Below, in pieces: positions 15,724-45,976 of a stretch of 48,442 nucleotides of DNA. The stretch covers positions 1 to 48,442 of the forward strand of contig CAYIMJ010000001.1 of the NCBI GenBank assembly GCA_964364605.1, written 5' to 3'. Made by a program: the position numbers and the translations under genes. Each line of letters opens with the position of its first letter. The first letter of the stretch is position 1. The DNA is from an uncultured Candidatus Saccharibacteria bacterium (GTDB lineage: Bacteria > Patescibacteriota > Minisyncoccia > Phycocordibacterales > Phycocordibacteraceae). Under the pieces are notes generated by a model. The model was not told the DNA's origin and did no database searches. It worked only from the letters and a program-made list of their open reading frames with translations.

Positions 15724-15897
15724 TTACTGCGCGGTCGTTGCAGAAGAAGGAACGGTCGTGTCAGCGATTCTTTTGCCCCATGCGTAGAAAGCACCAATGA
15801 TGATCATAAGCACGATAACGATAATCGAGATGAAGGCGCCCCAAGACTGAGCTTGCGGGGAAGGTGTGCCAGGTGGGAGAACGGGTTCGTTTTCCAT
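15724..15897 (-). CDS. candidate small membrane protein (57 aa), not in the ORF track
   Basis: Own translation: MENEPVLPPGTPSPQAQSWGAFISIIVIVLMIIIGAFYAWGKRIADTTVPSSATTAQ. It has one clear TM helix and lies 28 nt downstream of ppa on the same strand. Confidence 0.45.
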   Translation of the reverse strand: MENEPVLPPGTPSPQAQSWGAFISIIVIVLMIIIGAFYAWGKRIADTTVPSSATTAQ

Positions 15898-15925
15898 AAT
15901 TAATTATTTGATTCAGCAGAATCAC

Positions 15926-16447
15926 CTACTGGGTTGAGTCATTGTACATCTTTCGTGCACGCTCGTATGCAGCCTCTGCCGCCGAACGTCCCTCGAAGTC
16001 ACCAACTGAGACCTCTTTCTTCTGAATCTGCTTATACGTAGCGAAGAAGTGTGCTATTTCCTTGAGCACGTGCTGGTTCGCATCCTTAATATCTTTCACA
16101 TCCGCGTACCGAGGATCACCGGAGGCAACTGCAATAACTTTTTCATCTGCTTCGCCGCCATCGATCATATGCATGATGCCTACCATGCGTACCGGGACGA
16201 GAATGCCGGGTGCAAGCGGATGCGTAGTCAGCACGACAACATCAAGAGCGTCGCCATCATCCCAGAGTGTCTGCGGCACGAAGCCGTAGTCAAAAGGGTA
16301 GTCCTGCGCGCTGTGCATGACCCTGTCGAGCTTGATAACTCCTGTCTTCTTATCAATCTCGTACTTATTGTGAGAACCTTTCGGAATCTCAATGATGACA
16401 TTCACCTCTTCTTTTGTTCCCGGATCAATATCGTGCAAAAGATTCAT
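15926..16447 (-). CDS. ppa: inorganic pyrophosphatase (family I)
   Basis: VIIEIPKGSHNKYEIDK..LDRV...YPFDYGFVPQTL.DDGDALDVVVL. Confidence 0.95.
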   Translation of the reverse strand: MNLLHDIDPGTKEEVNVIIEIPKGSHNKYEIDKKTGVIKLDRVMHSAQDYPFDYGFVPQTLWDDGDALDVVVLTTHPLAPGILVPVRMVGIMHMIDGGEADEKVIAVASGDPRYADVKDIKDANQHVLKEIAHFFATYKQIQKKEVSVGDFEGRSAAEAAYERARKMYNDSTQ

Positions 16448-16526
16448 CCCGTTAGAAATTAGTTTAATAAAGCATTGCTTGTTTTATTTTACACCCCCCC
16501 CCGACAATCTCGCCATTTCTAACGGG
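16448..16526. mobile_element. family-A inverted-repeat mini-element (79 nt) abutting the ppa start codon
   Basis: Arms CCCGTTAGAAAT (16448-16459) and ATTTCTAACGGG (16515-16526). Flanked by the direct repeat ATTCAT (16442-16447 and 16527-16532), which is ATGAAT on the gene strand. Contains a C9 tract at 16494-16502. Confidence 0.75.
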
Positions 16527-16560
16527 ATTCATATGCATCGATTATACATCACTGATACTT

Positions 16561-17928
16561 TTAATCGTCTTTTGCTTTATCACGATCTTCTGTCGCATCA
16601 GCAACAGTCTCATCACTCGCAGGAAGGGGAGTCAATTCCTCTTCAGCAGGAAGAACGGTGGACTGAGGAGCCTCATTAGTAATCATCTCGATGCTCTCAG
16701 TCGGCATGACACCTGCCTCTTCGGCCGGACCTTCGTCGTTGTTCGCAATAACGGCAACTGATTCGCCATTCGATTCAGCGATGTCCTTGCCGCCTGTAGA
16801 AATAATATCGATGTTCCATCCTGTGAGTTTCGCCGCCAAACGGACGTTTTGTCCTCCGCGCCCGATAGCGAGCGACTGTTCGTCCTCGCTGACTGTCACT
16901 GTTGCGCGATGGTCCGCTTCGTTAAGCACCACTTCAGTCGGAGTCGCAGGGGAGAGCGCTTCTTTCACGAATTCCTTCGAATCAGCGTTCCATTCGATGA
17001 TGTCGATGCGCTCACCGCCAAGCTCGCTCATGACCGTCGAAACACGGACACCGCGCTGACCGACGAGAGAACCGACCGGGTCGATGTGCGCTTCGCGAGA
17101 CGCAAGTGCGATCTTGGTGCGACTACCTGGTTCGCGAGCAAGAGCCTTAACCTCGATAGAACCAGCGGCAAGCTCTGGTGCTTCAAGCTCGAAGAGCTTC
17201 ACGACAAACTGAGGATGCGCGCGGGAAAGTCTAAGATATACGCCGCGGAATCCCTCATCGACCACGTAGAGATATGCGCGGATACGCTCACCCATGCGAT
17301 AACGCTCGCCTGGAATTTGCTCCTCGTACGGAATAATGCCAGTTGTGCGACCGAGGTCGACAAATATCGCGCCACGCTCCACACGCTGCACGATGCCGCC
17401 TACGATTTGACCCTTCTTTTCGCCAAATTCTTCCATCATCGAGAGCTTCTCAGCCTCGCGAACCTTCTGGATGACGACCTGTTTTGCAGTCTGAGCTGCA
17501 ATGCGACCAAAATCGTCTTGCTGCTCAAGCGGGAAAATAATATCTTCGCCCACATTCACGCCGCGCTTCATGCGCTTTGCATCGTCGAGAAGAATGTGTT
17601 TTTCAGAATCAAAGCGGGGTAGTTCGCCTTCCGCAAGATGCTCTTCCTCAGTATGGAATGGGTGTGCATGATGATGCTCCTCAGGAATCACTTCATCAGG
17701 TGCAGGAAAACGAACCGTTGTGTCGTCTACGACGGTTTTTACTTGTTCAAAGGAGATTGTGCCGGTGTTGAGATCGAGCTTGGCACGGATGACTTGCCCG
17801 CGCTTGCCGTATTCGCGCTTATACGCGGTCGCCATGGCGCTTTCGATAGCATCGATCATCGTCGCGCGGCTGATGCCTCGATCCTCAAACTCCCCGAGCA
17901 CTGCATTGATAGTCTTTAAATCAATCAT
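16561..17928 (-). CDS. nusA: transcription termination/antitermination factor NusA
   Basis: The N-terminal domain (MIDLKTINAVLGEFEDRGISRATMIDAIESAMATAYKREYG), S1-like and two KH regions (GQRGVRVS..., AIGRGGQNVRLAAKLTGWNIDI), plus an acidic tail. Confidence 0.92.
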   Translation of the reverse strand: MIDLKTINAVLGEFEDRGISRATMIDAIESAMATAYKREYGKRGQVIRAKLDLNTGTISFEQVKTVVDDTTVRFPAPDEVIPEEHHHAHPFHTEEEHLAEGELPRFDSEKHILLDDAKRMKRGVNVGEDIIFPLEQQDDFGRIAAQTAKQVVIQKVREAEKLSMMEEFGEKKGQIVGGIVQRVERGAIFVDLGRTTGIIPYEEQIPGERYRMGERIRAYLYVVDEGFRGVYLRLSRAHPQFVVKLFELEAPELAAGSIEVKALAREPGSRTKIALASREAHIDPVGSLVGQRGVRVSTVMSELGGERIDIIEWNADSKEFVKEALSPATPTEVVLNEADHRATVTVSEDEQSLAIGRGGQNVRLAAKLTGWNIDIISTGGKDIAESNGESVAVIANNDEGPAEEAGVMPTESIEMITNEAPQSTVLPAEEELTPLPASDETVADATEDRDKAKDD

Positions 17929-22198: not shown

Positions 22199-22268
22199 GT
22201 ATACCCGTGAGATAGCATTTCAATGCAGTGTACAACTCGATAAACATTGGGCATCTCACGGGGTATAC
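22199..22268. repeat. family-B inverted repeat (arms GTATACCCGTGAGAT / ATCTCACGGGGTATAC) upstream of pilB
   Basis: Left arm 22199-22213, right arm 22253-22268, 39-nt spacer. The right arm ends in TATACT (22264-22269), 9 nt from ATG 22279. Confidence 0.75.
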
Positions 22269-28324: not shown

Positions 28325-28438
28325 CCCGTTAGAAATCACGAACACGTCTATCAAAGTGATCACGAAACGTTATGGACCGCAGTAACAAAATAAAATATGA
28401 CACCCTTTATGCGACGTTCGTATTCTATTTCTAACGGG
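28325..28438. mobile_element. family-A inverted-repeat mini-element (114 nt) between the duplicated pgk start codons
   Basis: Arms at 28325-28336 and 28427-28438. Flanks are ATGCGT (28319-28324) and ATGCGC (28439-28444). Confidence 0.75.
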
Positions 28439-30368: not shown

Positions 30369-30475
30369 GTATACTCCGTGAGATAGGTGTTCCTGGGGCT
30401 ACCTGCTCGAATATCGAGCAGGGCAACGTAAGCGCATAAGCAGAGAAATGGAGCGAATTATCTCATGGGGTATAC
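30369..30475. repeat. family-B inverted repeat in the HIT/recJ divergent promoter region
   Basis: Arms GTATACTCCGTGAGAT (30369-30384) and ATCTCATGGGGTATAC (30460-30475). The 75-nt spacer contains the perfect hairpin CCTGCTCGA-ata-TCGAGCAGG. Confidence 0.75.
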
Positions 30476-30487
30476 AATAGCTCTCAC

Positions 30488-32284
30488 ATGTTCCCACTCC
30501 ACGATCCGCTTACTGAACCTCTACGAGCAGAACTTGCATCGTATGACGATCTCACTGCCGCGTTGCTTTCGCGCCGCGGTATCCTGACTAAAGAAGACGC
30601 TGAGAAATTTCTCAACCCCTCCTACGAAGGTCACCTATATGACCCATTCCTGATGACTGACATGAGAAAAGCCGCGGAGCGATTTGCGGCGGCGATTCTC
30701 TCGGGAGAAAAAATTGCAGTATGGAGCGACTACGATTGCGATGGTATTCCGGGTGGCGTACTCCTCCACGATTTCCTCGCGAAAGCTGGTGCGAATTTTG
30801 AAAATTATATTCCGCATCGACATGAAGAGGGGTATGGCATGAATGTGAGTGGAATTGAGAAGCTTGCAAAGAGCGGAGTGAAACTCATCGTGACAGTCGA
30901 CTCTGGTATCACCGATATCGAACCTGTTGCCCGGGCGAAAGAACTTGGCATGGACGTCATCGTAACCGATCATCATTTGCCGGGAGAAAAATTACCAGAC
31001 GCTTTTGCGGTCGTTAATCCTAATGCTCGTCCCGTTAGAGACAAGATGTTGTCAGCATCTGGCTCGCCGGAGGCGAGCGTCTCTAACGGGACAAGTGCCG
31101 ACGAAACGTATCCGTTTCGCAGTCTCTGCGGCTCAGGGGTCGCGTGGAAACTCGTCTGCGCGACTCTCGCGATTGCACCAACTCTTCGCGAGAAGGTACC
31201 CGTCGGATGGGAGAAGTGGCTCCTTGATATGGTCGGTCTCGCAACCATCGCTGACATGGTTCCGCTTGTCGATGAGAATCGCGTTCTCGCGACGTATGGA
31301 TTGAAAGTAATGCGGAAGTCGCCACGCATCGGGCTACAAAAAATGTGCCGCGGAATGCGTGTGGATCAGCGTGCGATTACCGAAGACGACGTCGGGTTCA
31401 TGATAGCCCCGAGAGTGAATGCCGCGAGCCGGATGGGGGACGCACGCGATGCGTTCCGTCTCTTCACGACGACCGATGAAAACGAAGCTGATGAACTCTC
31501 AAAGAAAATGGAGAAGGCGAACCGTCAACGGAAAGCAGAGGCGGGCGCTATCACGCGCGCGGTACACACACGACTCAAGGAACGCGGGGAGGTGCGAAGC
31601 GTCATCGCACTCGGAGATCCCGAGTGGCGCCCGGCGCTTCTCGGTCTTGTTGCAAACACGATTGCTGACGAGTATGAGCGTCCGGTATTTTTGTGGGGAA
31701 GGGAAGGGAACATGCGTCTGAAAGGATCAGTGCGGAGTGGCGGCACGACGCATATTATGGAACTCATGCGCGCGGCAGAAAAAGCATTCGTCGAATTCGG
31801 CGGACATGCGGCGGCGGGCGGTTTTGCCGTCCACGACACTGAAGTATTTTTTCTAGAAGACCGACTCGTCGAAGCACATGCAAAAATACTGGAAGGAAAA
31901 ACCGCTGAAGACAGTCTGGCGATGCGTGCCGATGCGCACATCACACCGGAAGAAGCGACGACGTCATTTCTTTTCAAAGTCGAGAAGCTCGCACCCTTCG
32001 GTCAGCAGAATGCGAAGCCAGTGTTTCTGCTTCGCGAAATTATCGTGCGAGAGATTTCACGCTTCGGAAAAGGGGAGGAGCATTTGAAATTGAAAATAAC
32101 TTCCGTCGAAGGTACTGGACGAAGTGTCGAAGCGGTTACGTTTTTCGTAAAAGGATCGATCGCCCGTGCAGCGGAGAAAATCTCTGCGGGTAGTCGCGTG
32201 AACCTACTTGCACACCTTGAGCGCGACACCTTCTCGCGCGGGAATCCGGTGCGCCTGCGACTTCTCGACATCAAATTGATATGA
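30488..32284 (+). CDS. recJ: single-stranded-DNA-specific exonuclease RecJ
   Basis: DYDCDGI, VTVDSG, VTDHH, GSGVAWKL, IADMVPL (DHH/DHHA1 motifs). Confidence 0.93.
   Translation: MFPLHDPLTEPLRAELASYDDLTAALLSRRGILTKEDAEKFLNPSYEGHLYDPFLMTDMRKAAERFAAAILSGEKIAVWSDYDCDGIPGGVLLHDFLAKAGANFENYIPHRHEEGYGMNVSGIEKLAKSGVKLIVTVDSGITDIEPVARAKELGMDVIVTDHHLPGEKLPDAFAVVNPNARPVRDKMLSASGSPEASVSNGTSADETYPFRSLCGSGVAWKLVCATLAIAPTLREKVPVGWEKWLLDMVGLATIADMVPLVDENRVLATYGLKVMRKSPRIGLQKMCRGMRVDQRAITEDDVGFMIAPRVNAASRMGDARDAFRLFTTTDENEADELSKKMEKANRQRKAEAGAITRAVHTRLKERGEVRSVIALGDPEWRPALLGLVANTIADEYERPVFLWGREGNMRLKGSVRSGGTTHIMELMRAAEKAFVEFGGHAAAGGFAVHDTEVFFLEDRLVEAHAKILEGKTAEDSLAMRADAHITPEEATTSFLFKVEKLAPFGQQNAKPVFLLREIIVREISRFGKGEEHLKLKITSVEGTGRSVEAVTFFVKGSIARAAEKISAGSRVNLLAHLERDTFSRGNPVRLRLLDIKLI
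31029..31092. mobile_element. family-A variant inverted-repeat element inserted in-frame in recJ
   Basis: Arms GTCCCGTTAGAGAC (31029-31042) and GTCTCTAACGGGAC (31079-31092). The core 31031-31090 is 60 nt (20 codons), encoding PVRDKMLSASGSPEASVSNG between the conserved NPNAR and YPF..L.GSGVA. There is an inner hairpin gctcgcc-gga-ggcgagc. Confidence 0.7.
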
Positions 32285-34365: not shown

Positions 34366-35901
34366 ATGAGCTATCTCATCGCCATCGTGTCGGGATTCGC
34401 GAGCGGAGTATTTCTCCGCTCGGTTTTTAGTTTTGGATGGCCAGTAATCTGTTTCGTACTTTTGCTCGCCACGATTCTTTTTGCAGTCCCGAGAGTACTT
34501 GCCGTTCATCCTGCGTACACGCTTGCCCCGTTAGAAATCAGATTTCTAACGGGGCTTGGCGCGGCTTTCTGTATTTTTCTTGCCCTCGGTATGGTGCGAA
34601 GCTCACTCGCCGAGACTCCCTTGCCCGACATCTTCGCAAAAGATCTGCGACATCGCGTTTCCTACGAAGGAGTCATTGTCTCCGATCCTGATGTGCGCGA
34701 CGCGAATCAACGCGTTGAAATTCGTGTGTCAGAAAAAGGTGAGTCGACGACTATGCTCGCGGTCGCACCGCGATATCCGAGAGTTATGGTTGGTGATCGT
34801 GTCTATGTCTCAGGCACACTTCTTGTCCCTGAAGCATTTCTCGATGAGAACGGTCGTGTCTTTCGTTATGATAAATATTTGGAGCGCAGTGGTGTGCGTT
34901 TCATTCTAAACTTTGCATATCTGCGTGTCATCGAGAAAGCTCCTTGGTATTCGATACCAGCTTTACTCGCACGAATAAAACATTCATTCCTCGACGGCCT
35001 CTCGACCACACTGCCTGAACCGTATGCCTCACTTGCTGGCGGTGTCGTGATAGGAGGGAAGTCCGGTCTCGGAAGCGAGCTCAAAGAGGTATTCATTCGC
35101 TCAGGTCTCGTACAGATAATTGTTCTGTCCGGCTATAACGTCATGATCGTTGCTGAGTGGGTCATGGCCGCGCTCACATTTACCAAGCTCAGGAAGCGGT
35201 GGGCGGCAGTGGCGGGTGCGTTTGCAATCCTTATCTTCATCGGTGTCGCAGGAGCTTCCGCGACAGCACTTCGCGCCGCGCTCATGGCATTCATCGCACT
35301 CTATGCGCGAGCAACCGGCCGCACGTATGCAGCTGGTCGCGCATTACTGCTCGTCGTATTTCTCATGCTCGTGTGGAATTCTCTCTATCTCGTTTTTGAT
35401 CCAGGCTTCGGACTCTCGGTAACCGCAACCGCAGGACTCATCTGGCTGGCGCCCCTCATCGAAATCATATTTGCTTTCATGAAAAACGCATTCTGGAAGA
35501 ATGCAATTGCGACAACTCTCGCTGCACAAATCGCTGTCCTACCGCTCCTTTTATATGACACTGGGAACCTATCGCTCGTCGCGCTCCCTGCGAACTTGCT
35601 CGTGATGCCTGTTGTGCCTATCGCGATGGGACTCTCCGCATTTGCCGGTTTCGCAGGAATTATTTTCGGAACATTCGCCCCCATGTTTGCCGTCATGCTT
35701 GCACTGCCGGCATACCTTGCGAATGCGTATCTGATATTCATCGCGCAAGAATCTGCCGCACTGCCTTTTGCGGCTTTTACGCTTCCGTTATTCCCGTTCT
35801 GGCTTGTACTCGCTGCCTACGCGGCACTTATTTATTTCGCTTCATCAAAACGCTTCTCGACAACGCTCCAGTTGAGATTCGCAAAAAAGGCGTCAACATA
35901 A
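34366..35901 (+). CDS. comEC: ComEC/Rec2 competence channel protein (DUF4131 + Competence domains, no MBL domain)
   Basis: OB-like DUF4131 region (YEGVIVSDPDVRDANQRVEIRV..GDRVYVSGTL), then a polytopic region with GLVQIIVLSGYNV, GASATALRAALMA. Confidence 0.85.
   Translation: MSYLIAIVSGFASGVFLRSVFSFGWPVICFVLLLATILFAVPRVLAVHPAYTLAPLEIRFLTGLGAAFCIFLALGMVRSSLAETPLPDIFAKDLRHRVSYEGVIVSDPDVRDANQRVEIRVSEKGESTTMLAVAPRYPRVMVGDRVYVSGTLLVPEAFLDENGRVFRYDKYLERSGVRFILNFAYLRVIEKAPWYSIPALLARIKHSFLDGLSTTLPEPYASLAGGVVIGGKSGLGSELKEVFIRSGLVQIIVLSGYNVMIVAEWVMAALTFTKLRKRWAAVAGAFAILIFIGVAGASATALRAALMAFIALYARATGRTYAAGRALLLVVFLMLVWNSLYLVFDPGFGLSVTATAGLIWLAPLIEIIFAFMKNAFWKNAIATTLAAQIAVLPLLLYDTGNLSLVALPANLLVMPVVPIAMGLSAFAGFAGIIFGTFAPMFAVMLALPAYLANAYLIFIAQESAALPFAAFTLPLFPFWLVLAAYAALIYFASSKRFSTTLQLRFAKKAST
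34526..34554. mobile_element. minimal family-A element (two arms plus 3-nt loop) inserted in-frame in comEC
   Basis: CCCCGTTAGAAAT-cag-ATTTCTAACGGGG, flanked by the direct repeat CTTG (34522-34525 and 34555-34558). Translated as PLEIRFLTG. Confidence 0.75.
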
Positions 35902-38699: not shown

Positions 38700-39371
38700 A
38701 TGGCCACACTCCTTACCTTCGCTATCCTTATCATATCCATCATCGCGCACGAAGTAGCGCACGGGTACGCTGCCAATTCGCTTGGGGATCCGACCGCCCG
38801 CCTCGCAGGACGCCTCACCCTCAATCCGCTCCCGCATATCGACCTCATGGGCTCAATCGTCATTCCCGCCCTCCTTGCTTTCGGGGGTTCGCCGATATTC
38901 TTCGGTTGGGCGAAGCCGGTTCCGTATAACCCCTACAATCTCACGAATCAACGCTGGGGCGAGGCGCTTGTCGCGATCGCCGGCAGCGCGACGAACATCT
39001 GTCTCGCGATTGTGTTCGGACTTTTGGTTCGATTTGGTTCGACATCTGGACTCGATGCGACAACACTTTCTCTCGCCGCTGTCATTGCCTTCGTCAATCT
39101 TTTCCTCGGTCTTTTCAACCTTATCCCGTTCCCACCGCTTGATGGTTTTACCGCCCTGCGTGCCGCACTCCCTTGGAACCTCTCTTCAGACTTGAGTCGA
39201 CTTGAGCACCAAGTTCGTACGGCCGGAATGCTTCCACTTATCCTCTTCCTCATTATTTTCTCCTATATCTTCGCCGGACCGTTCTTCAATCTCGTCGTAT
39301 GGCTCCTCGGACTCATTGCGAGCCACGATATATATGTACTCCTTGGACTCATTGCGAGCAGCGGTATATAG
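38700..39371 (+). CDS. site-2 protease family (peptidase M50) membrane metalloprotease
   Basis: IIAHEVAHGYAANSLGDPTA...GRLTLNPLPHIDLMGS and NLIPFPPLDG motifs. Confidence 0.88.
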   Translation: MATLLTFAILIISIIAHEVAHGYAANSLGDPTARLAGRLTLNPLPHIDLMGSIVIPALLAFGGSPIFFGWAKPVPYNPYNLTNQRWGEALVAIAGSATNICLAIVFGLLVRFGSTSGLDATTLSLAAVIAFVNLFLGLFNLIPFPPLDGFTALRAALPWNLSSDLSRLEHQVRTAGMLPLILFLIIFSYIFAGPFFNLVVWLLGLIASHDIYVLLGLIASSGI

Positions 39372-39385
39372 TGCGATATATGGAT

Positions 39386-39497
39386 CCCGTTAGAAATCGC
39401 GAACGCTGCAATCGAGGAATGGATCCAATTATAAGCTCTAATCGGATAGGGTTCGGCTGCACCGCATCTGGTGTGTCCGCGCCCTATTTCTAACGGG
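39386..39497. mobile_element. family-A inverted-repeat mini-element (112 nt) between duplicated start codons of the DUF3467 gene
   Basis: Arms at 39386-39397 and 39486-39497. Flanks are ATGGAT (39380-39385) and ATGGAC (39498-39503). Confidence 0.75.
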
Positions 39498-44900: not shown

Positions 44901-45896
44901 ATGCGTCTCAATCTCCTTACTGCCTCTGCTCTACTTATTCTCATCCTGCCTATCTCTGTCTCAGCGCAATCCCTGGAAAACTCGGCCGGAGATGCGCCCT
45001 TTACAGTCTCAGTAAATCCCCAATACCCGGCACCCTACAGCCAAGCAAGTTTATCCTTCCTTTCAGCCTCTCTTGATCTCACAAATGCGCTGCTCGCTGT
45101 CTCAGTTGCTGGTAAGGAGACCTATCGAGGAACGGTCCAGCCAGTCGGAATCACTCTTGGTAAAGCAGGGAGCGCTACGAATGTAAAAGTGACGATTTCT
45201 TCGGGCGGAGTAAATTATACTCAGACAATTTTTATACAACCCCAGGATGTGGCGATTATCGCTGAACCAATCTCTTCGGCCCCGCCTCTCTACCCAGGAA
45301 CGCCCCTCATACCGCTTGAAGGAAGCGTGCGAGTGGTCGCGGTGGCGAACCTGAGAGACGCAAGAGGGAAGACTCTCGACCCATCGACACTGTCGTACGC
45401 ATGGACGGTCGATACTACACAGATCGCAAACTCATCAGGTATCGGCAAGATGGCAATCATGGTCGCTTCGCCGCTCCAATACCGCGCTCGTTCAGTCTCA
45501 GTTGCAGTTACGAGCCAGAACGGGAGTCTTGTCGGAGGGGCGTCGCTCTCACTCACTGCCAAAGAACCCTTAGTACGTATCTACCGGAATGACCCTCTAC
45601 TCGGCATCCGTTTCAACCACGCCCTCTCGGGAGAATATCCCATCGCCGGCGCAGAGACGGCTCTCTATGCCGCACCGTTCTCACTACCAACTGCCGTCGG
45701 CGCACCACTCCTCCAGTGGTTCTTAGACGGTAGTCCCGCACAGACAGGGAATGCGATAACACTTCGCCCTACGGGAAGCGGCCAAGGGAATGCCTCCCTG
45801 TCGCTCGTAGCATCTGCGGGAAATTCCACGACAGCAACCGCAAACCTATCACTTTCCTTCGGTGCAAAACCGGGCTTTAATATATTCGGCCTATGA
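44901..45896 (+). CDS. secreted hypothetical protein
   Basis: Signal peptide MRLNLLTASALLILILPISVSAQS. TATACT lies 6 nt upstream of ATG. Confidence 0.65.
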   Translation: MRLNLLTASALLILILPISVSAQSLENSAGDAPFTVSVNPQYPAPYSQASLSFLSASLDLTNALLAVSVAGKETYRGTVQPVGITLGKAGSATNVKVTISSGGVNYTQTIFIQPQDVAIIAEPISSAPPLYPGTPLIPLEGSVRVVAVANLRDARGKTLDPSTLSYAWTVDTTQIANSSGIGKMAIMVASPLQYRARSVSVAVTSQNGSLVGGASLSLTAKEPLVRIYRNDPLLGIRFNHALSGEYPIAGAETALYAAPFSLPTAVGAPLLQWFLDGSPAQTGNAITLRPTGSGQGNASLSLVASAGNSTTATANLSLSFGAKPGFNIFGL

Positions 45897-45898
45897 GT

Positions 45899-45976
45899 CC
45901 CGTTAGAAATTCAAAACAATATATGGGTATTAAAAATATGTCGCAACAGGAGCACTCTGACTCTATTTCTAATGGG
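45899..45976. mobile_element. family-A inverted-repeat mini-element (78 nt, open in frame) at the 5' end of the pilin-like gene
   Basis: Arms CCCGTTAGAAAT (45899-45910) and ATTTCTAATGGG (45965-45976). ATGAGT lies upstream and GTGATGA downstream. Confidence 0.7.

Follow-up and report, generated by a model that had tools for sequence, protein, structure and literature searches.

The ppa locus and its insertion

The window analysed here, 48,442 nucleotides (nt) of contig CAYIMJ010000001.1 from an uncultured Candidatus Saccharibacteria bacterium, carries on its minus strand the genes nusA and ppa, and between the two lies a mobile element sitting on the start codon of ppa. The ppa coding sequence (15926..16447) specifies a family I inorganic pyrophosphatase of 173 amino acids (Pfam Pyrophosphatase, E = 5.5e-57). 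It is the sole pyrophosphatase that we detected in the source genome (G000, a 738-kb assembly), and neither a family II enzyme nor an H+-PPase was found in this 87%-complete genome. The upstream neighbour nusA (16561..17928, minus strand, 455 amino acids, with matches to the NusA_N, KH_5 and S1 domains) ends in a TAA at 16563-16561, after which 14 nt of spacer lead up to a TATAAT box. We found no terminator-like hairpin in the nusA-ppa interval, and a generic scan for sigma-70 promoters and terminators over positions 15850-16700 returned nothing.

All features of the locus that follow are read along the minus strand. The TATAAT (16541..16546) is the -10 box of the pre-existing leaderless-type ppa promoter and is the same in the related genome G047, whose ppa site is empty. 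It is followed by the 8-nt spacer cgatgcat (16533..16540, direct reading) and by an outer ATGAA (16528..16532), the upstream copy of the target-site duplication. This outer copy is the original ppa start and now opens an upstream open reading frame (uORF). The element then begins with a T and the left arm CCCGTTAGAAAT (together 16515..16527, the arm itself at 16526-16515), continues through a 55-nt interior (16460..16514) that is 85% identical to that of the allele in genome G014, and ends with the right arm ATTTCTAACGGG (16448..16459). Behind it lies the inner ATGAA (16443..16447), which is the downstream duplicate and serves ppa as its working start codon; CTTTTGCAC comes directly after the inner ATGAAT (16447-16442). 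The two arms, which begin with CCC and end with GGG, are a perfect inverted match (12 of 12 positions), and the right arm holds a second TAA in frame as a backup, 4 nt ahead of the ppa ATG. The element is non-coding and 79 nt long (16448-16526), and with the 5-bp duplication it makes up a total insertion of 84 bp between promoter and ppa.

The uORF (MNPVRNGEIVGGGCKIKQAMLY; 16464..16532) has 22 codons and a TAA (16466-16464) that ends 16 nt before the ppa ATG. It spans the left arm and a run of nine G (G9; C9 on the plus strand) at 16494..16502, which it reads as GGG GGG GGG, and it starts 85 nt from the inner ATG and in a different frame. The interior also holds a -10-like box, TG-TAAAAT (TGTAAAAT; 16486..16493, hexamer at 16491-16486), which ends 38 nt upstream of the ppa ATG. 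The original prediction had placed the TATAAT, the cgatgcat spacer, both ATGAAT copies and the C9 at these positions, had described the out-of-frame uORF and its distances, and had seen no Shine-Dalgarno (SD) sequence at the inner ATG. All of this is reproduced here; on direct reading, the 20 nt preceding the inner ATG contain no GGAG, GAGG or AGGA. The same prediction took the duplication to be ATGAAT. Both copies are indeed present, but the true duplication is the 5-bp ATGAA and the sixth base is the element's, because six of the 11 filled ppa sites described below read ATGAAT upstream and ATGAAC at the gene. The base preceding CCCG is a T in nearly all copies of the element.

With little room for doubt, the ppa insert is a non-autonomous miniature copy of a mobile family with terminal inverted repeats (TIRs), which inserts into start codons, duplicates ATGNN and in its full-length form encodes only a GIY-YIG nuclease of ~94 amino acids. 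Its target was the ATGAA of ppa, then a gene of the leaderless type, whose promoter now stands upstream of the element together with one copy of the start codon, while the rebuilt start lies downstream. Chance would give 0.21 occurrences of the 12-mer arm in the window, which has 11 of them, and the whole assembly contains 23 inverted arm pairs in a strict arm search and 33 in a looser one. In 24 of these 33 copies, ATGNN(T) stands upstream and a gene start with the ATGNN repeated follows directly downstream. In the long copies (~112-119 nt), the interior always points the same way with respect to the host gene (15 out of 15), and these copies lengthen the helix formed by the arms by ~9 pairs (CGCGGACGC/GCGTCCGCG).

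Two copies of 275 and 278 nt (C20:4087-4361 and C8:6252-6529), whose arms match at 11 of 12 positions, differing in AGAGAT, represent the full-length form. Their whole interior is an ORF that takes the duplicated host ATG as its first codon, encodes a GIY-YIG protein of 94-95 amino acids (PF01541, E = 1e-16 and 3.6e-14) and closes with a TGA that shares bases with the host ATG. The nearest solved structure of this protein is UPF0213 BH0048 (1ZG2, E = 3e-4). The full-length architecture is detectable also in seven other genomes of the genus, which hosts in addition sister families with different arms that are likewise located on ATG. Among the loci listed for the 24 genomes present in both searches, an arm-flanked GIY-YIG gene occurs in five of the seven genomes with miniature copies and in none of the 17 without them. 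On this co-occurrence across genomes, the GIY-YIG protein may catalyse excision or insertion, and the full-length form that encodes it is the candidate parent of the miniature copies. Full-text literature searches returned no publication describing a start-codon-duplicating TIR/GIY-YIG family, and an Rfam 15 scan of the window at the gathering threshold reported four tRNAs only, with no match at the element.

Further copies lie elsewhere in the window. Three of them are on the plus strand: one of 114 nt on an ATGCG start (28325..28438), one of 112 nt on an ATGGA start, whose uORF stays open until the arm TAA, 4 nt short of the gene (39386..39497), and one of 78 nt that is in frame with the downstream gene and reads as a fusion (45899..45976). 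A minimal copy of 27 nt, composed of the two arms and CAG and given without strand, is flanked by GCTTG repeats and is not at a start codon (34527..34553). Outside the window, two elements stand in tandem on one start at C41:3575-3810, in the order ATGAAT, 113-nt copy, ATGAAT, 117-nt copy (arms CCCGTTAGAGGT) and ATGAAA gene; here the rebuilt start codon was struck a second time. Copies of 60 nt with variant arms (CCCGTTAGAGAC ... GTCTCTAACGGG) and a nested GC-rich hairpin are found at 31031-31090 of the window, C13:1549-1608 and C20:7583-7642, none of them at a start codon. Being 20 codons long, they could be in-frame insertions within genes, a possible parallel to the Rickettsia palindromic elements, which are in-frame insertions in genes. 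A second palindromic family, with arms CCCGTGAGATAT ... ATATCTCACGGG, occurs at C2:14184-14240, C19:1285-1383 and C57:1648-1739, and the original prediction puts it also at 22199-22268 and 30369-30475 of the window. Its flanking hexamers are GTATAC-like and resemble the TATAC(T) -10 consensus of the genome.

Filled and empty ppa starts among relatives

We located ppa in 53 of 61 genomes of the genus, examined the upstream DNA at the 30 best-matching loci, and counted filled sites through a pattern search over 222 genus genomes. The sister of the source genome, G047 (support 100/94 in a tree of NusA and pyrophosphatase; 93% identity in pyrophosphatase and 94% in NusA), has no element at ppa. 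Its site reads ...TGTATAATCGATGCAT|ATGAATCTTTTA, further given as TGTATAATCGATGCAT|ATGAATCTTTTACAC..., with a single ATGAA and the same TATAAT and 8-nt spacer. Most of the other genomes examined also have an empty site, with TATAAT or TATACT 6-9 nt before the ATG. Comparison of the nusA-ppa spacer in relatives, a check proposed with the original prediction, has in this way yielded both filled and empty alleles, including an empty one with the same promoter.

Filled ppa starts were found in 11 of the 222 genomes. Eight of them carry a short-class element of 74-79 nt (G000, G014, G099, G147, G226, G005, G007 and G017), unrelated long-class copies are found in two (G045 and G146), and one carries a variant-arm copy (G132). 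As these three element types are clearly distinct, we take it that the ppa start was struck independently at least three times. On the tree of NusA and pyrophosphatase, the short-class pattern is explained with equal parsimony by four gains or by four losses. Interior types differ between the sister genomes G014 and G005, a hint of allele exchange.

Of the 11 filled alleles, 10 have an intact -10 box and outer ATGAAT, and the fourfold degenerate sites of ppa are near saturation (identity 0.34-0.6). Between G000 and G014, for example, the element interiors are 85% identical, the pyrophosphatases 90% identical in amino acids and the fourfold sites of ppa 41% identical. In G226 (locus L071, contig C9), the promoter and the outer ATGAA are missing and ppa is intact; the element adjoins the nusA stop (GAG TAA T|CCCG...), which ends 1 nt before the left arm.

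We considered domestication, in which the short-class interior would be exclusive to ppa, as within the genus it occurs in one copy per genome and always at ppa. This idea is weakened by metagenome copies on the start of another gene. These copies (loci L190-L192, from Hainich groundwater and another metagenome contig) belong to the short subfamily (GGAGG-TACACT/TAAACT ... TTTTATTAAACTA) and lie on the ATGAA start of a gene whose product begins with MNITIKA..., which we take, from the N-terminus only, to be a candidate for the ribosome hibernation factor gene hpf. In G000, the gene with the same MNITIKA N-terminus has a different short copy (C30:7148-7226) with a consensus TGGTATAAT box.

Before the insertion, ppa would have been a leaderless gene or one with a leader of 1-2 nt. 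This ancestral state, already proposed in the original prediction, is well supported by the empty site of G047, by the boxes of the other relatives and by the leaderless-type boxes found throughout the genome. In named records, a TAnnnT box 5-10 nt upstream of the ATG is present at 40 of the 67 empty ppa sites. The named relatives are metagenome-assembled genomes that carry the label Candidatus Kaiserbacteria or Paceibacterota. Among the long ORFs of G000, TAnnnT occurs 6-9 nt before the ATG in 204 out of 604 (34%), with a sharp peak of 100 at 6 nt, and SD-like 4-mers are found at 5-8 nt in ~15%. Examples of such boxes in the window include those at 39366-39379 and 45880-45892. From these counts, the organism seems to rely largely on leaderless mRNAs, and initiation without an SD would be normal for it.

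The promoter consensus derived from G000 is GTGG-TATAAT/TATACT, in which the box is preceded by T-G-n and no -35 signal is detectable. Because these promoters have no -35 signal, we replaced the generic sigma-70 scan with a -10 matrix built from the genome's own sites, 197 of which have a median score of 7.77. The outer ppa box, GATG-TATAAT, scores 8.13 and lies above this median. A possible new leaderless promoter at TAATTT, 8 nt upstream of the inner ATG, was scored as well and rejected: the score is only 2.3, and the hexamer is observed three times at promoter offsets against 2.75 expected.

Expression of ppa behind the element

We give roughly even odds (probability about 0.5) to a reading in which the old promoter still fires, translation of the uORF from the outer AUG opens the arm helix, and ppa then starts without an SD. 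Transcription would proceed from the old TATAAT and begin at the outer AUG or 1-2 nt before it. Ribosomes would load at this 5'-terminal AUG and read the uORF through the left arm, which would prevent or melt the 14-bp arm helix that hides the ppa AUG. The ribosome would terminate at the TAA 16 nt upstream of ppa, and the ppa AUG, with an AU-rich stretch and no SD before it, would be used by this ribosome re-initiating or by a fresh one. The internal -10-like box probably adds transcripts that are free of the hairpin.

The helix in question is predicted to comprise the arms and the AU/AU of the duplicated codons, to extend over 14 bp with about -21 kcal/mol, and to pair the A and U of the ppa AUG; RNA folding returns it as the centroid structure of the leader. 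In filled genomes ppa is under purifying selection, as shown by the amino acid and fourfold-site identities of G000 and G014, and since it is also the sole pyrophosphatase detected, it is likely to be expressed through the element. Moreover, the -10 box and outer ATGAAT were kept in 10 of the 11 filled alleles despite saturated fourfold sites, which argues that the outer promoter is still in use. The peptide sequence of the uORF is not conserved among alleles. Translation that opens the helix fits all eight short-class alleles, while pure re-initiation does not. In G226, which has no outer ATG, a ribosome terminating at the nusA stop could open the helix likewise.

The right arm itself renders all three reading frames harmless, one ending in a TAA 4 nt before the ATG, another in a TGA overlapping ATGA, and the third being an open fusion frame. 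Among the start-codon copies of nine genomes, 30 out of 60 are tightly coupled to or fused with the host gene, where 13.6 are expected from shuffled interiors, and in G000 alone this holds for nine of 17 copies against 3.5 expected; these counts come without a P-value, and copies counted across species are related to each other rather than independent. The lengths of the long copies fall into the three classes modulo 3 in a ratio of 25:10:6.

That dependence among copies is one of several points that weigh against expression from the outer promoter. We infer every step of expression from the sequence. Re-initiation cannot be the common mechanism, because in five of the eight short-class alleles the outer ATG is missing or the uORF ends 35-54 nt upstream of ppa. 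The efficiency of re-initiation in E. coli and Haloferax already declines in the range of a 16-nt gap, is almost abolished at ~20 nt and is reduced by 80-100% at 38 nt (PMC10666635; review PMC12548453). A helix that starts 4 nt after the 5'-terminal AUG should hinder leaderless initiation, unless ribosomes load co-transcriptionally. With no terminator behind nusA, read-through from that gene is possible and would bury the outer AUG inside an mRNA where it has no SD. Finally, the conserved internal -10-like box would offer a simpler route.

This simpler route is a possible one, to which we give clearly less than even odds. Most ppa mRNA would come from the extended -10-type box of the short class (GG-TG-TAAAAT) and start ~7 nt downstream of it. 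Such transcripts would lack the left arm and hence the helix, have an unstructured, AU-rich leader of ~31 nt without an SD, and make the outer ATG and the uORF leftovers. The box was overlooked in the original prediction and could lessen the importance of the outer ATG. It scores 7.22 on the genome matrix, compared to 8.13 for the outer box and the median of 7.77, and RNA folding predicts that the leader of its transcript is unpaired. In five of the eight short-class ppa alleles, TAnnnT lies at the same alignment column, with its end 38 nt before the ATG: GG-TG-TAAAAT in G000, GATG-TAAAAT in G014, GAGG-TAGAAT (score 8.6) in G099, GAGG-TAAACT in G147 and GAGG-TACACT in G226. The column is thus kept by four different hexamers (TAAAAT, TAGAAT, TAAACT and TACACT), and the box is found also in the three metagenome copies on the start of another gene. 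Over the 60 copies, boxes scoring at least 8.5 are far more frequent in sense than in antisense (13 and 1, respectively), and G226 keeps ppa with neither outer promoter nor outer ATG.

Other observations speak against the internal box as the main source. Retention of the outer promoter and ATG in 10 of the 11 filled alleles would be unexpected if they were useless, given the saturated synonymous divergence. The box is missing in three short-class alleles (G005, G007 and G017), and its TG lies directly before the hexamer (-2, -1), whereas the genome prefers -3, -2. Long-class copies at leaderless genes are mostly without the box, yet their uORFs are open. As to coupling, internal promoters are not clearly commoner in weakly coupled copies (14 out of 30 versus 9 out of 24). 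Box-bearing alleles mostly have early uORF stops, because the stop is a TAA or TAG inside the box, while the box-less G005 and G007 are open to -16 and G000 has both features. This complementarity of internal box and open uORF among alleles is suggestive. Transcription from the internal box and from the outer promoter are not mutually exclusive.

A more ambitious proposal, which we consider unlikely, would make the short-class element a portable expression cassette in the control of ppa. With its own -10 box, an AUG-hiding hairpin and an unmasking 5'-terminal uORF, it would tie the sole pyrophosphatase to the capacity for leaderless (70S) initiation, and in one lineage G9 would add a slippage-prone setting of the uORF stop.

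The G9 tract could also act as a contingency switch, through slipped-strand mispairing or RNA polymerase stutter that moves the uORF stop from 16 to 36-41 nt upstream and so tunes or switches pyrophosphatase. We regard this as very improbable. The tract is unusual in a genome that avoids G/C runs (seven runs of length 7 against 49 expected): C9 at 16494-16502 is one of only two runs of at least nine in 738 kb, the other lying in an intergenic hairpin. By computation, the uORF stops 16 nt before ppa with G9, 36 nt with G8 or G11 and 41 nt with G7 or G10, and no tract length joins the uORF to ppa. A frameshift at G9 that fuses the two was rejected, since both alternative frames stop within 2-3 codons after the tract. 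The nearest allele, G014, is 2 nt shorter in exactly this segment and has its uORF stop 41 nt before ppa. However, the tract is missing from all seven other short-class ppa alleles, where sequences such as GCGTGAGGA (G014), GGAAGGAGG (G099), GTGAGGAGG (G147) and GGGAGGA (G005, G007 and G017) stand at its position. G9 is thus a form, peculiar to this lineage, of a conserved GGAGG-like motif, with A converted to G and 2 nt more in length.

Of the properties of a contingency locus, a slippable homopolymer inside the uORF and a stop that moves upon a one-base change are present, and upkeep of the tract in related lineages is not. G014, G099 and G147 are naturally in the 41-nt state with a conserved ppa, which indicates that this state is viable and not 'off', and on/off switching of the sole pyrophosphatase would be harmful. 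A metagenome search for other tract lengths of the G000 ppa allele gave no match. The statement of the original prediction that slippage would change the uORF stop holds in the computation; a special role for C9 is unsupported, as the seven other alleles lack it and the alleles with gaps of 35-41 nt evidently express ppa. All that G9 visibly does is to set the reading frame of the uORF such that its stop comes 16 nt before ppa; C9 is a derived oddity with no evidence of function. At C14:4441-4448, eight consecutive C (G on the coding strand) adjoin a fourfold 12-nt tandem repeat, GCTCTGCTTCCA, in the following ~100 nt. Both lie in an ORF that presumably encodes a type I restriction specificity subunit; as a candidate for phase or length variation, this site is more conventional than the ppa tract.

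Equally improbable to us is that RNase III cuts the arm helix and leaves a 5' end just before the ppa AUG, which would regenerate a near-leaderless message. G000 encodes RNase III, the perfect 14-bp arm helix ends at the ppa AUG, and long-class copies have the ~9 further helix pairs mentioned above. Nevertheless, 14 bp are short for an enzyme that prefers ~20 bp, efficient leaderless initiation is not known for processed ends with a 5'-monophosphate, and the enrichment of the family in open, frame-preserving uORFs is left unexplained. Ribosomal bypass between AAT codons, of the T4 gene 60 or mitochondrial byp type, was rejected, as AAT/AAT fits ppa but other copies mismatch (GAT/GAA, AAT/AAA or AAG, CAT/CGG) and no bypass-type stop follows codon 2 of the outer frame.

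Related systems and biological meaning

Mycobacterial interspersed repetitive units (MIRUs), tandem direct repeats in the operons and intergenic regions of mycobacteria that are not known to have TIRs, are the nearest published functional analogue, although the element is not one of them. They are short and apparently mobile repeats at start codons, whose small ORF is coupled to the host gene at -4 nt and whose insertion hardly disturbs expression (PMC12548453). Similarly, in many copies of the present family the ORF stops 4 nt short of the ATG or with a TGA that overlaps the ATG. The ppa copy differs from the -4-nt overlap of MIRUs in being loosely coupled, with a gap of +16 nt, while other copies of the family are at +4 or -4. 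It is also a single unit with perfect inverted arms of 12-14 nt, a 5-bp ATGNN duplication, a full-length form with a GIY-YIG gene and a host among the Patescibacteria. No nuclease partner of MIRUs is named in the review (PMC12548453).

In being non-coding, multi-copy and flanked by inverted termini and a target duplication, the ppa element is by structure a miniature inverted-repeat transposable element. Among the bacterial elements of this type, the Correia or NEMIS elements of Neisseria are small non-coding TIR elements next to genes, which have target-site duplications, can carry promoters and form hairpin RNA that is processed by RNase III. They duplicate TA, have 26-bp repeats and DDE-type mobility, and are not known to target start codons. 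The element described here, in contrast, targets start codons, has an orientation fixed to the gene, and has as its candidate parent a GIY-YIG nuclease rather than a DDE transposase.

GIY-YIG nucleases with repeats of their own are known from the Ssn family (Chenal et al. 2025, PMC11893778). These are small, single-domain, single-strand nucleases. On either side of their genes stands a cognate NTS/SRM repeat that is scattered genome-wide in many copies, an architecture that the authors liken to an insertion sequence. The candidate parent GIY-YIG gene is likewise flanked by its own genome-wide repeat. Each NTS/SRM unit is a hairpin of ~30 nt (PMC11893778), whereas the two arms of our element pair with each other across it. 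The term 'start codon' does not occur in that paper, and Ssn repeats are reported there neither at starts nor with ATG duplications. For the uORF, a parallel exists in the leaderless short ORFs upstream of operon genes in mycobacteria (bioRxiv 10.1101/834739), where a short ORF with a 5'-terminal AUG forms the first cistron and, by being translated, influences the gene that follows. These are native regulatory sensors, for example cysteine-responsive ones, whereas the ppa uORF would be a by-product of insertion with a peptide that is not conserved.

The specific value of the locus is its pair of filled and empty alleles at an essential leaderless gene. Two sister genomes share the leaderless ppa promoter with and without the 84-bp insertion, and in both the sole pyrophosphatase is under strong purifying selection, which makes them a natural before/after pair. 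The candidate routes to ppa are leaderless loading, helix opening, re-initiation at 16 nt and an imported promoter, and the locus is a testable case of SD-less initiation behind a uORF and a hairpin in ultra-small bacteria. It also carries a warning for annotation, as gene callers can choose the outer ATG at such sites or call the uORF as a gene. More generally, the ppa case illustrates how elements that seek out start codons can live in genomes with almost no spare DNA.

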